Positions 16,469 to 20,377 of a DNA stretch of 64,000 nucleotides are shown piece after piece. The notes below the pieces were generated by a model. The model was not told the origin of the DNA. It did not search any database and saw only the letters and a program-made list of their open reading frames with translations. The position numbers and the translations under genes are program-made. The stretch spans positions 69,931 through 133,930 of the forward strand of contig CAZYYU010000002.1 in NCBI GenBank assembly GCA_964651735.1, written 5' to 3'. Source of the DNA: an uncultured Gammaproteobacteria bacterium. GTDB taxonomy: Bacteria > Pseudomonadota > Gammaproteobacteria > CAZYYU01. The first letter of the stretch is position 1, and each line of letters begins with the position of its first letter.

Positions 16469-19400
16469 TCATATAAACGGACTCCAATGTTCATTAGAAT
16501 CAGTATCAGCATCAGGATCACCGTTTAGAGCTCGTCTATCATTCTCAAGCAAATCCGCCAAGGTAGTAAAATGTTCAACACTATCAAGATTAAGATATTT
16601 TTCTCTCTCTTCATCTTCTTCCAATAATTGTGATTCAGGAACTCTACTTTGATTATTGCTCGACAAATATCCAAGTTTTCTAATATTCGTTGCATATATA
16701 TTAGGCTTTACTCCATCTGAGAAATCCATATTTGGAATCACAGCAGGATTTTTTTTAGGTAAATTACGATCCAATTTAAATTTCGTGATTAGCATATTTG
16801 TGAAGAATTCACTAGCTTTAGAAAAACGACTTAATATCGCAAATGAATTAGACAAACTATATTCTAATAAATATGCAATGAGATCTTTTGCTTTTTGGAT
16901 TTCAACTATAAGAGGAAAAAATGATCCCAAAATTCCACAATACAGCCAAATTCGAAATTCTAGGTATTGCATTTTTGAGTGTTTTACTATTACTCTACTT
17001 ATATTTCGATTATCATCATCAACAATAAATTCAAATTTATATAATTCCCAAGTACCATTTTGATCAATGTATTCTACAATAAGACTTCGATGTTCATCAT
17101 CAATAAAATCATGTTCACTTTCATATTCAATAAAAACAAGTGAAGCTTCTTTTGAATTAATTTTAAAATTTAACTCAGCTTCAATTTCTGCTTCTAATAA
17201 TGCACAACAACAATCTAATTGTAAACAAGCTTCACAAACCACTCCAAAAACTTTTAATTTCAGGTTACCTAAAGTAGATTTTACCGTGCCTTGATACATT
17301 CTACTACGATTGTTAATATTATTATTACCTATCACTAAAGAATGCCAATTGGGATTTGGTATTGATGCTTCGATTAATGCCAACAACCCTTTTACAGATA
17401 CACTATTGTCAGACAAATTGATGATCTCGATAAGATTTAAATTAAATTTAACAATTTGCTTATATCTGCTAAATATGGAAAACGATATTCTATGGTGCAC
17501 TTTCAAATCTGATAGCATGAACAACAATGCCAATGTATAGGCGAATGTGTCATCCAGCTTATTATCAGACACATCAATCACTTTAATATTACTAAACTTG
17601 ATTTCAGGAAAATTTCCATCATTTATCATTCTCAATATAAAGAAAAATATATTACTTGCACAAGTATAATAGTCATCTAATGTTTCATCAAATTTTATTT
17701 TTATGGCATCATTTGATTCAGAAGTATAAATGTCGCAATCACGAAAAAGAAATAATAATTCTTTTTTTGGCTCTATCCGTTTCCACACAAATTTTCTATC
17801 TGATATACGAGTGTAATATTGTGCTCCAAGCTGTAATAATAACTTTAAATTTTCAGCCTCTAGATTTTTTGCATCTAATATCTGAGCATCTGTTGCTCTT
17901 AAATCACTAGGTGCAATCGTATTGGATAAATCTTCAATTCTGAAGATTTTTAAAATGTCATTAGGTGTATCAAGCACTGCAACTTTCAAAAAATCTGAGC
18001 TAAATGTAATACTTCCTTCATAATTTGTTGCACTCGTAGTAAATTGCGATTTTGAATTGGCCTGGGTATCTATAATTACTACCTTTCCATCTTTGCAAAA
18101 TGCACCAATATGAATGGCATCTTCCGAAAAAGTCAAAGAATGAATAAAACTAGATCCTTTAATTACGGTAACACCACCAATGACTTGAGGCTTGCGAAAA
18201 TTTGCTAATTCTTGTGATGAAGGTAAATCGCTATTATTTTCAGTGTTAAATGTAGCCACTATAGGTAAATTTTCTTTAACATCTCCATACATTACAACGT
18301 TATTACAAGACATAACATAGTGAGTACCATATTTATCTAAGTATATAAATGAAATTTCATAATCAATGAGTTTAGACCATATAATATTTCTGGATTCTCG
18401 ATCCCATACACAAATTAGGCCAGGTTTACATGCAGATATAATGACATTCCCATCATGTGACATGTCTACTCGCCGAAATATGTGGTCTTTAATTTCACCA
18501 AATTCTTCTTTAATACCATCCTTGTCACATAGGTAAAGCTTATCTAACTCACAAAAAATAATATATTTACCATCATAAGATATTGCTGTCTTTTTAGAAG
18601 GATTCATTTTTATACTAGTATAACTAATTTTGGATCCATCTCTGGCATCAGTCATGGTAGTCTCATTGCCACCTTCAACAAATTCAAAACTATCATATTC
18701 ACAAAATGATTGAACACATTTTCTTCTATTTTTTCGCCATAAAATAACATTTGCAAGTGCCATCCTGACAGCAACATACTCACCATCGGGTGTAATACAA
18801 ACATTCTGAATAGAACGCGGATTTTGAAATATGCCCAAAACGCTACATGTCCTTACATCCCATAATCTCACTACACCTCTAAGATGAAATGATGCAGCAA
18901 AATTCAAATCTTTTGAAAAAGCAAATCCAATGGTTTCTTTAGTCACAATCTGTGGGAACTGTCCAAAATTGACTCCCTTCATTTTTGTTGATGTAAAATC
19001 AGCACCTGAAACATCTGAATTTGATAAATTAACATATCTAAGATCAGCAAATCCAAACTTTGCACGTTTAAAATTTCCTGAATTTAGATCAGCTCTCTTA
19101 ACGTTTATCCCTCTTAAATCAATACCTTCAAAGCTTTCTCGACTGTAATTCAGAATCGTGATGGCGTGTCTTCCTCCATTTACGTACTCTTTCCCCTTTC
19201 TTGACCTATACACCCATCCCCAAAAATAGAGTTTTGATGATTTTTCTCGTACTAACTTCTCTGCATATTCCTCTAATTCATCTTTAGACAATTCTCTAAC
19301 ATTTAATGGGTCTCGAATCCAGTCTTCATCATTATCTCTCACTTCTGATATTTTTAACGGCTTGTCAAATAATAAGGAGACTATTCTCTGCTCTTCATTC

Positions 19401-20377
19401 TGTTTTAAGCGCCTCTTCCTTTCACTCACTAAATAATTTAATAACAACTCCCCTTGCATTCTAAATTCAAATTTTCCGTTACCAACCTCTCTCAGTGACA
19501 GTGCTACTCCTCTTAAACATCGTCTTAATAATAACTGATCTTTCCCTTGTTCAAGACAAACTAACATCTGTTCACGACTTAAGCTCCCGCTAAAATCTTT
19601 CATAGCTCCTGCGATTTCTTCAGATAACACTCTATAAAGTGATACCCATTCTCTTTTTTTCTCACTTCCTGATTTCTCTTGTTCGGCTATCTGCACATAC
19701 CATTCATTTAACAATTCCCTACAAATAAATCGTACACATCCTTCTTTAACTTTCTCTTTTCCTTTTAATTCAAGTCTTGCTACCTTTAATTTCTCAATCC
19801 ACTCAGGAAGTTTATGTAAATAAATATGTAAAAAATGTCGATAACGTAATACATCTTTTAAACCTTTTATCCCATTCATATATCGTAGACATTCTTTTTT
19901 ATACCGATATTTATTAAGATTCAAAACATGTTTTCCAAAAGCATTTACCACATCCTCCTGAGATAGTGGTGAGATTTCAAGCTCTTTCAACCAATCTTCT
20001 TTAAAGGCTTTACCCACTATGGGAATAAATGATTCGTGATAATTTTCTTGTAGTAGATATAAATCACATCGTCTCGCAATCACGACAATCTTCAATCTTG
20101 ACCAGTTAATATTATTGTTATGTTGCTCTAAGTAACCATGAAACCAATCCATGCTCTTATCATCCAATAATCCAGTGAGCACCAGTACAACATTAGTGAT
20201 TTGTAATTTTTCGAAGATTAATTGATCATTAAGTACTTGATTTGAATGGGATAGATCGACGATATAAGTTATTTCGGTGTGCTCGTTGAGAGATGATTCT
20301 TTAAATTTTTTACAATATTCCTGAACATCGTCACAAAGCACGATTTGTACAACTGAAGACAAGTCCATTTTTTCCAA
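16469..20377 (-). CDS. Giant multi-repeat protein (1302 aa): pentapeptide repeats, WD40-like beta-propeller, LRR (RNI-like), and an N-terminal region with a NACHT-like Walker-B/TSR pattern but no P-loop.
   Basis: Pentapeptide run: IDLRG INVKR ADLNS GNFKR AKFGF ADLRY VNLSN SDVSG ADFTS (about nt 18960-19135). WD-like: VVRLWDVRT and LICVWDRES. LRR-like: IKVIDVSDNKLDD...IINLSDNSVSVKGL. Start is TTG 20377 or ATG 20368. Confidence 0.7.
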   Translation of the reverse strand: MEKMDLSSVVQIVLCDDVQEYCKKFKESSLNEHTEITYIVDLSHSNQVLNDQLIFEKLQITNVVLVLTGLLDDKSMDWFHGYLEQHNNNINWSRLKIVVIARRCDLYLLQENYHESFIPIVGKAFKEDWLKELEISPLSQEDVVNAFGKHVLNLNKYRYKKECLRYMNGIKGLKDVLRYRHFLHIYLHKLPEWIEKLKVARLELKGKEKVKEGCVRFICRELLNEWYVQIAEQEKSGSEKKREWVSLYRVLSEEIAGAMKDFSGSLSREQMLVCLEQGKDQLLLRRCLRGVALSLREVGNGKFEFRMQGELLLNYLVSERKRRLKQNEEQRIVSLLFDKPLKISEVRDNDEDWIRDPLNVRELSKDELEEYAEKLVREKSSKLYFWGWVYRSRKGKEYVNGGRHAITILNYSRESFEGIDLRGINVKRADLNSGNFKRAKFGFADLRYVNLSNSDVSGADFTSTKMKGVNFGQFPQIVTKETIGFAFSKDLNFAASFHLRGVVRLWDVRTCSVLGIFQNPRSIQNVCITPDGEYVAVRMALANVILWRKNRRKCVQSFCEYDSFEFVEGGNETTMTDARDGSKISYTSIKMNPSKKTAISYDGKYIIFCELDKLYLCDKDGIKEEFGEIKDHIFRRVDMSHDGNVIISACKPGLICVWDRESRNIIWSKLIDYEISFIYLDKYGTHYVMSCNNVVMYGDVKENLPIVATFNTENNSDLPSSQELANFRKPQVIGGVTVIKGSSFIHSLTFSEDAIHIGAFCKDGKVVIIDTQANSKSQFTTSATNYEGSITFSSDFLKVAVLDTPNDILKIFRIEDLSNTIAPSDLRATDAQILDAKNLEAENLKLLLQLGAQYYTRISDRKFVWKRIEPKKELLFLFRDCDIYTSESNDAIKIKFDETLDDYYTCASNIFFFILRMINDGNFPEIKFSNIKVIDVSDNKLDDTFAYTLALLFMLSDLKVHHRISFSIFSRYKQIVKFNLNLIEIINLSDNSVSVKGLLALIEASIPNPNWHSLVIGNNNINNRSRMYQGTVKSTLGNLKLKVFGVVCEACLQLDCCCALLEAEIEAELNFKINSKEASLVFIEYESEHDFIDDEHRSLIVEYIDQNGTWELYKFEFIVDDDNRNISRVIVKHSKMQYLEFRIWLYCGILGSFFPLIVEIQKAKDLIAYLLEYSLSNSFAILSRFSKASEFFTNMLITKFKLDRNLPKKNPAVIPNMDFSDGVKPNIYATNIRKLGYLSSNNQSRVPESQLLEEDEEREKYLNLDSVEHFTTLADLLENDRRALNGDPDADTDSNEHWSPFI

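Follow-up and report, generated by a model that had tools for sequence, protein, structure and literature searches.

The 64-kb window analysed here, a 64,000-nucleotide stretch of contig CAZYYU010000002.1 from an uncultured gammaproteobacterium, carries at positions 16469–20377 of its minus strand a gene for a protein of 1302 aa whose N-terminus, judged by profile and pairwise sequence comparison, is homologous to the NACHT module of the STAND NTPases (positions below refer to the window, and all parts of the gene lie on the minus strand). The parts of the protein appear to follow one another as a degenerate NACHT module, a linker, a pentapeptide beta-helix, a seven-bladed WD40 propeller, a pentapeptide cap, decayed leucine-rich repeat (LRR) units and an orphan C-terminus. 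The open reading frame (ORF) is real; the whole stretch, including the 5′ end, is identical in contigs assembled from two sequencing runs of an activated-sludge metagenome. An in-frame TGA at 20413–20411, 12 codons upstream of the TTG at 20377, closes the frame, in agreement with the first-pass annotation, which held that the ORF could not extend upstream. Given this stop codon and a gap of 128 nt between the TTG and the dps gene, there is therefore no room for an upstream exon-like piece in which a P-loop could hide. The TTG was preferred over the alternative ATG at 20368 because of a GGGG 7 nt ahead of it and because the N-terminus of the paralogue P0072 (MEEKD...) pairs residue for residue with the (M)EKMD read from the TTG. 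The gene has a G+C content of 32% as compared with 37% for the window, and its third-position G+C (23%) resembles that of the neighbouring housekeeping genes.

The evidence for homology comes from a broad profile covering the NACHT-to-pentapeptide region of 35 proteins that carry PF05729 matches. This profile was compared with an N-terminal profile of the window protein and its paralogues P0072 and P0073, from which the pentapeptide region had been removed. For the N-terminus alone, hhalign returned a score of 79.5 (probability 96.7%, E=3.3e-10) over 239 columns spanning residues 58–318, as compared with 16.3 ± 3.5 for 60 column-shuffled controls (maximum 25.3) and 16.8 for the reversed profile. 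When the pentapeptide anchor was retained, the score rose to 239, relative to 150 for the anchor alone, 158 ± 1.3 with column-shuffled N-termini and 172 ± 14 with block-permuted ones. Furthermore, HMMER searches with the 35-sequence profile gave 31.2 bits for the window protein and 36.0 and 17.3 bits for the other two N-termini, the best of 4000 decoys reaching 13.8 bits, and a single BLASTP alignment joined residues 94–558 to residues 161–632 of P0015 (E=2e-15), a canonical NACHT protein with the motifs GDSGSGKS and LFILDGYDE. The three methods share one collinear path, and it is the path implied by the two short motifs from which the first-pass annotation had proposed a decayed or non-canonical STAND/NACHT scaffold; that proposal is now supported by the hhalign, HMMER and BLASTP results together. 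The similarity is thus significant with the broad profile, while the Pfam PF05729 model itself gives no match. Strict Walker A motifs are present in 31 of the 35 profile members and in none of the window protein, P0072 and P0073. In this case, a broad profile of proteins sharing the adjacent repeat module found a homology that was missed by Pfam, by a narrow profile and by single-family AlphaFold modelling.

The nucleotide-binding domain occupies residues 1–140 (19958–20377) and was delimited from the secondary structure of an AlphaFold 2 (AF2) model, the hhalign alignment and the missing Walker A. Its elements are predicted to be strand beta1 (residues 10–15), a deleted P-loop, helix alpha1 (18–29), strand beta2 (35–41), the Walker B strand (62–68, with T66 in place of the Asp), the sensor-1 strand (95–102, with R102/R103) and an E-x-x-PLS strand (132–140). 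A motif search of the whole protein for GxxxxGK[ST] found no Walker A anywhere; the first-pass annotation had noted none ahead of the NACHT-like motifs. VLVLTGLLDD pairs with the Walker B consensus flfIlDGYDE such that Thr66 replaces the Mg-coordinating Asp; the same position holds a Ser in P0072, and in P0073 no match was found. RLKIVVIARR pairs with the sensor-1 consensus aKviItCR in hhalign and with AKIIITCRR of P0015 in BLASTP, so that the sensor-1 Arg is retained, and a basic residue is kept at this position in all three proteins. These two segments are the NACHT-like motifs of the first-pass annotation; they are indeed present, at residues 62–73 and 95–106 (nt 20060–20194), but are separated by a spacer of 21 residues rather than the 27 given there. 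By the alignments described above, they are the Walker B and sensor-1 strands of a divergent NACHT module. Further along, ELEISPLSQEDV pairs with the family strand e..i.pFs..qI.

The nucleotide-binding domain is followed by an HD1-like helical domain and helical stretch at residues 141–260 (19598–19957; hhalign and P0015), in which GLKDVLRYRHFLHIYLHKLPEW and ICRELLNEWY pair with the helical-domain motifs p.l.eL..nPFlL.l.l.vLP and lYd.Fv..w in hhalign and also in the BLASTP alignment with P0015. The winged-helix domain covers residues 261–320 (19418–19597), as delimited by hhalign, the BLASTP alignment with P0015 and the AF2 model; its motif KFEFRMQGELLLNYL pairs with the winged-helix consensus y.FiHk.Sl.Eyfva and with YAFVHATLLSYF of P0015, so that the motif is present at the level of the fold, while the nucleotide-contacting His of F-x-H-x-S-x-QE[FY]L is replaced by Met307. 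A helical linker at residues 321–403 (19169–19417) is joined to the repeats through its final segment, GWVYRSRKGKEYVNGGR; the HMMER alignment extends into the linker as far as residue 395, and it is collinear with residues 384–470 of P0015. With regard to the P-loop, VQIVLC pairs with beta1 and ITYIVDLS with beta2, leaving a gap of 4–5 residues at the GxGKS position in the low-confidence part of the alignment upstream of residue 58; this gap agrees with the short loop of the AF2 model, in which only 2–3 residues (C-D-D) separate beta1 from alpha1. The domain therefore does not seem to be cut off at its N-terminus; rather, beta1, alpha1 and beta2 appear to be present and the phosphate-binding loop between beta1 and alpha1 to have been deleted. 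As far as the alignments indicate, the NACHT module is complete in outline, and the three features that hold the nucleotide (P-loop, Walker B Asp and winged-helix His) have all been lost.

Several results weigh against this assignment. The Pfam NACHT model gave no match up to E=10 on either the whole protein or residues 1–400, and the NCBIfam models likewise gave none. A narrow profile of the eight closest LRR-NACHT proteins was not significant by HMMER, by local or global hhalign or by a reverse hidden Markov model (HMM) search against decoys. AF2 models of residues 1–423 and 1–200, computed with the three-sequence alignment, were poor overall (mean predicted local distance difference test score, pLDDT, 41 and 47); no Foldseek match passed E=1e-3, and the 200-residue model gave noise. 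In addition, the first 57 residues are of low confidence in the profile alignment, so what exactly became of the P-loop is read from the AF2 secondary structure together with a weak alignment.

The same searches yielded further results. A PDB sequence search with the three-sequence profile produced chance matches only (for example, the signal recognition particle receptor, E=0.05). With the narrow profile, semi-global pairwise scores reached z=1.5 and the Viterbi score was flat beyond the pentapeptide anchor; its only signal came from the anchored posterior sum, which was 205 as compared with 145 ± 18 for column-shuffled and 148 ± 18 for block-permuted controls (0 of 80 reaching 205 in each; z of approximately 3.2). 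In the AF2 model, a beta-alpha-beta-alpha-beta-alpha-beta arrangement over residues 1–103 (the unit lying at 10–102) was predicted at pLDDT 56–80, followed downstream by a hairpin at residues 295–305 and then a helix, both within residues 295–336. The order of these secondary-structure elements fits an ASCE fold, within a model of low overall pLDDT. Foldseek matches of the 1–423 model were led by origin recognition complex (ORC) subunits, clamp-loader delta, Avs4, Cdc6 and other AAA+ proteins, the best at a sub-threshold E-value of 3e-3. The structural check suggested in the first-pass annotation thus came out divided: AAA+ and STAND folds dominate the list, but all fall below the significance threshold. 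An alternative placement of residues 215–272 on the P-loop helix and beta2, obtained with the narrow profile, was rejected; it is not shared with P0072 or P0073, AF2 predicts helices there, under the broad profile it has P 0.12, and the same residues align confidently to the helical-domain motif. Within this segment, RFICRELLNEW...REWVSLYRVLS (residues 216–272; 19561–19732) resembles LLLYGKEGIGKSFFCKKFQRDLLNEW...QWFPIYVDLS of P0013, a chance look-alike under the broad profile. It was because of this look-alike that the narrow-profile searches were misled.

Next, we examined the relatives of the N-terminus. Two kinds of search with the N-terminal 400 residues, one word-indexed and one exhaustive, covered 5.8 and 1.8 billion cluster representatives and recovered only two homologues among them, P0072 (1170 aa) and P0073 (1225 aa), the sole relatives in a total of approximately 15 billion proteins. 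Both share 45–50% identity with the window protein over residues 1–470, have different propellers thereafter and likewise contain no Walker A. A scan of genome contigs for relatives of the N-terminus found none, and exact-protein look-ups of P0002 and P0072 returned no record. Identity among the three paralogues varies along the sequence: 11–42% over residues 1–93, 45–62% over residues 94–320 (70–83% between P0072 and P0073), 31–36% in the pentapeptide region and 18% or less in the propellers, the winged-helix segment at residues 261–320 being the most conserved (60–83%). This suggests that the former nucleotide pocket is relaxed, that the core of helical domain and winged helix is under constraint and that the repeats are diversifying, a pattern that fits a module kept for protein contacts and joined to a variable recognition part, and that speaks against a drifting pseudogene.

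One weak match from the initial search, P0005, turned out to have the architecture LRR-NACHT-pentapeptide-WD40-LRR. When P0005 was used as the seed of a further search, dozens of NACHT-pentapeptide-WD40 proteins came up, whose sources are Mortierellomycota fungi, a Glomeribacter endosymbiont and uncultured organisms; LRRs are present in several of these proteins. Pentapeptide repeats, a WD40 propeller and LRRs, a combination unfamiliar to the first-pass annotation, therefore do occur together in other proteins, for example the metagenomic P0005, P0007 and P0008, and always behind a NACHT domain.

The repeats themselves begin with the junction motif HAITILNYS and a pentapeptide beta-helix at residues 404–475 (18953–19168). 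In Pfam, PF00805 reaches 33.9 bits here (cut-off 20.2; E=2e-8), which places the segment in the pentapeptide family, and residues 404–475 are 40% identical to residues 852–923 of P0005 (E=2e-12). Approximately 12 consecutive in-register pentads, with a hydrophobic residue at one fixed position, were counted over residues 416–475, where at least nine repeats had been claimed. The propeller follows at residues 481–820 (17918–18937) with seven blade-like units read in the sequence. Several Pfam propeller families match residues 485–668 with E-values of approximately 1e-9 to 1e-5, none of them reaching the cut-off set for its family, and PDB WD40 chains match at E=1e-13 (2ymu), in line with WD40 membership and with the WD-type strands already noticed in the sequence; PDB WD40 proteins and designed pentapeptide proteins together gave matches from E=1e-13 to 1e-9. 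After the propeller, residues 823–852 (DLRATDAQILDAKNLEAENLKLLLQLGA; 17822–17911) form a pentapeptide-like cap that matches the post-propeller segment of P0023, P0029 and P0044 in short-query BLAST. The second short pentapeptide run of the first-pass annotation lies within it at residues 826–845 and corresponds to the cap conserved after the propeller in NACHT-pentapeptide-WD40 proteins; its continuation, DAKNLEAENLKLLLQLGA, resembles the post-propeller AMGLSASNVKLLKQLGA of P0023.

LRR-like units had also been proposed, and for these the outcome was mixed. Three units stand in a 26–28-aa register, with the LRR-unit Asn at residues 939, 991 and 1019 (spacings of 52 and 28 residues), but Pfam gave no LRR match (best LRR_6, E=6.3), and an HMM of the LRR unit built from 125 repeats of related proteins reached a P value of only approximately 0.018, two of the units being clear and one weak. 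In BLASTP, the LRR regions of P0007 and P0012 were matched with E-values of 0.008–0.03. On this marginal evidence, residues ~925–1040 (17258–17605) may represent three or four decayed LRR units of the ribonuclease-inhibitor type.

The remaining C-terminal region, residues 1041–1302 (16472–17257), comprises a hydrophobic segment and an acidic tail; it has no detected relatives, with no Pfam, NCBIfam or PDB match and no counterpart in P0072 or P0073. Residues 1143–1160 (16898–16951) form an 18-residue hydrophobic segment, IWLYCGILGSFFPLIVEI, that possibly inserts into a membrane. The tail at residues 1240–1302 is rich in Glu and Asp, and P0073 likewise ends in an acidic tail.

The gene heads a cluster of four co-directional giant genes, which encode the 1302-aa protein, a 545-aa SEFIR/TIR-like ankyrin protein, an 856-aa tetratricopeptide repeat (TPR) protein and an 1184-aa protein without Pfam domains, and which are followed by a LuxR-type gene; no terminator-like sites were found within the cluster. 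The 545-aa neighbour (14774–16411, minus strand) lies 57 nt past the stop codon, has its SEFIR/TIR-like domain at the N-terminus and matches the PADLOC bSEFIR model (E=7.5e-8) over approximately 90 residues, as well as Pfam Ank_2 (E=2e-13) and, below the cut-off, TIR_2 (E=2.5e-4); its first 240 residues had no match when PDB sequences were searched. None of the four giant proteins contains a Walker A, and the cluster itself therefore encodes no ATPase partner. Furthermore, a Pfam search of the neighbours within approximately 8 kb on either side and of ten other window ORFs found no MoxR or vWA domains. The LuxR-type gene, the four giant genes and dps (7602–20970) sit between gatB and tilS; at the related locus L011, tilS abuts gatB-gatA, and at the closest relative, L002, other genes follow dps, so that the cluster occupies a variable insertion slot.

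Identities of AccA (77% to a Coxiellaceae metagenome-assembled genome and 66–68% to Legionella species) assign the organism, which is uncultured, to the Legionellales. Six ORFs of the window (2–2014, 2016–2906, 3185–4072, 8527–12081, 30258–32615 and 51124–52680; 295–1184 aa) have no Pfam family at E=1e-5; orphan proteins at this density are typically seen in intracellular bacteria rich in effectors. No Rfam family reached its gathering score in the window.

The architecture was then compared with known systems. NACHT-pentapeptide-WD40 NLR-like proteins of Mortierellomycota fungi, Glomeribacter endosymbionts and uncultured bacteria (for example P0015, P0018 and P0023) show the same order from the sensor-1 strand through the helical domain, winged helix and linker, and are also alike in the AANA-x-TILN junction, the pentapeptide repeats, the WD40 propeller and the post-propeller cap. 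They differ in that their Walker A is intact (in 31 of 35), their Walker B motif reads DGYDE and their winged-helix His is retained. The window protein has none of these features, and in turn has extra LRR-like units and an orphan C-terminal region. Besides the window protein, only the LRR-NACHT-pentapeptide-WD40-LRR proteins (P0005, P0007, P0008, P0009 and P0012; ENA ERZ746982) were found to combine pentapeptide repeats with a WD40 propeller and ribonuclease-inhibitor-type LRRs. Their junction is 40% identical to that of the window protein and their LRR units are weakly similar and in register, but their NACHT domain looks active, both of their ends carry long, regular LRR arrays, and they are 1400–2300 residues long. 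In the ERZ746982 sample, tandem LRR-NACHT-pentapeptide paralogues of 1450 and 1670 aa occur among Pfam-less ORFs, with a third copy, carrying WD40 repeats, on another contig (L082, 10001–20121; L001, 1635–7178).

Inactive STAND (iSTAND) components have been described in MoxR-vWA ternary conflict systems (Kaur, Burroughs, Iyer and Aravind 2020, PMC7159879), and NACHT/NLR-labelled predicted effectors in another Legionellales symbiont (bioRxiv 10.64898/2026.04.11.717937). The iSTAND proteins are similar in that a STAND NTPase domain without catalytic motifs is kept as a structural or regulatory module, but they are defined by an operon with MoxR and vWA genes, neither of which occurs among the window ORFs scanned. 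Inactive STAND modules as such are thus already known, and what is new is the P-loop-less NACHT-pentapeptide-WD40 family. The plant sensor NLRs RRS1 and RGA5 have dispensable or degenerate P-loops and signal via a P-loop-dependent partner. The likeness to the window protein is an analogy of working principle only, that of an NLR that does not need its own nucleotide switch; RRS1 and RGA5 belong to the NB-ARC clade, are eukaryotic and have a partnership that is genetic and proven, whereas for the window protein it is conjectured. Clamp-loader delta and ORC subunits are comparable as ASCE or AAA+-type folds that serve as nucleotide-free structural subunits with degenerate ATP sites, but neither sequence nor function relates them to the window protein, and the corresponding Foldseek matches are below significance.

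Taken together, these results lead us to propose, with a probability of roughly 0.55, that the protein belongs, as an NLR-type protein, to the NACHT clade of STAND NTPases, that its nucleotide switch is dead and that it acts as a nucleotide-independent scaffold or sensor, the likeliest setting being that of an effector or adaptor. On this proposal, the protein would neither bind nor hydrolyse ATP. The conserved helical and winged-helix surfaces would have been kept as a protein–protein interface for oligomerisation or docking, and the pentapeptide, WD40 and LRR part would bind the target; the protein would then be a nucleotide-independent scaffold or sensor rather than a self-switching receptor. 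As for the setting, we lean tentatively, and at somewhat less than even odds, towards either an injected, host-directed effector of the Dot/Icm type or an adaptor docking onto P-loop-bearing NACHT proteins, in an amoebal host; we favour it because of the Legionellales lineage and the variable island with its ankyrin, TPR and SEFIR/TIR-like proteins. The position of the acidic C-terminal stretch, which is off that usual for the Dot/Icm E-block, counts against an injected effector.

Nearly as likely as the effector setting, although on the doubtful side in its own right, is the alternative that the protein serves as the sensing half of an NLR-like conflict system inside the bacterium, directed against phages or other invaders, in which the repeats would recognise the invader and a P-loop-bearing NACHT helper, or the SEFIR/TIR-ankyrin neighbour as an NAD-consuming effector, would be recruited. 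STAND proteins with WD40, pentapeptide or TPR repeats, as well as inactive STAND components, are known from bacterial conflict systems (PMC7159879), and the gene 57 nt downstream matches bSEFIR. That match, however, spans only approximately 90 residues and TIR_2 remains below its cut-off, while PADLOC models on the 1302-aa protein itself gave nothing beyond E=0.003. Ankyrin and TPR neighbours are, moreover, typical of the host-directed effectors of the Legionellales. Large anti-phage arsenals are uncommon in host-associated lineages, which also counts against a conflict system. More speculative, and rather unlikely, is a 'split NLR' network in which the window protein, P0072 and P0073 would be three P-loop-less NACHT sensors that have handed switching to separate, sensor-less NACHT ATPases of the same genome, with the window protein, as the unlinked third sensor, bringing its own SEFIR/TIR-ankyrin output; such a network would be the bacterial analogue of sensor/helper NLR pairs in plants and animals, and would possibly act inside a eukaryotic host after injection.

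It is improbable that the gene is the decaying relic of a NACHT receptor that has lost its ATPase and is drifting towards a functionless pseudogene. The loss of the Walker A, the Walker B Asp and the winged-helix His, the degenerate LRR units and the lower G+C relative to the window would be expected of such a relic, but the 3.9-kb frame is uninterrupted and identical in both run assemblies, the third-position G+C matches that of the housekeeping genes, and the 45–83% identity of the three paralogues over residues 94–320, next to propellers of 18% or less, indicates selection on the dead module. Finally, an unrelated alpha/beta and helical domain with NACHT-like motifs arising by chance is very improbable, since the absent Pfam match, the non-significant narrow-profile and Foldseek results and the one competing weak placement of residues 215–272 on the P-loop helix region stand against significant broad-profile hhalign, HMMER and BLASTP results that agree on one collinear alignment, and against the failure of the competing match both under the broad profile and in the paralogues.

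NLR and STAND receptors are understood as nucleotide-driven switches. Conservation of the core in the protein of the window and its two paralogues, despite the lost P-loop, Walker B Asp and winged-helix His, suggests that the NACHT module can be reused purely for docking or oligomerisation. Should the nucleotide-independent scaffolds or sensors proposed here have active NACHT proteins as partners, the sensor/helper principle known from immunity in plants and animals would extend to bacteria; should they be injected into amoebae, they would form a new class of effector in the Legionellales, one that imitates the STAND-type signalling of the host or interferes with it.

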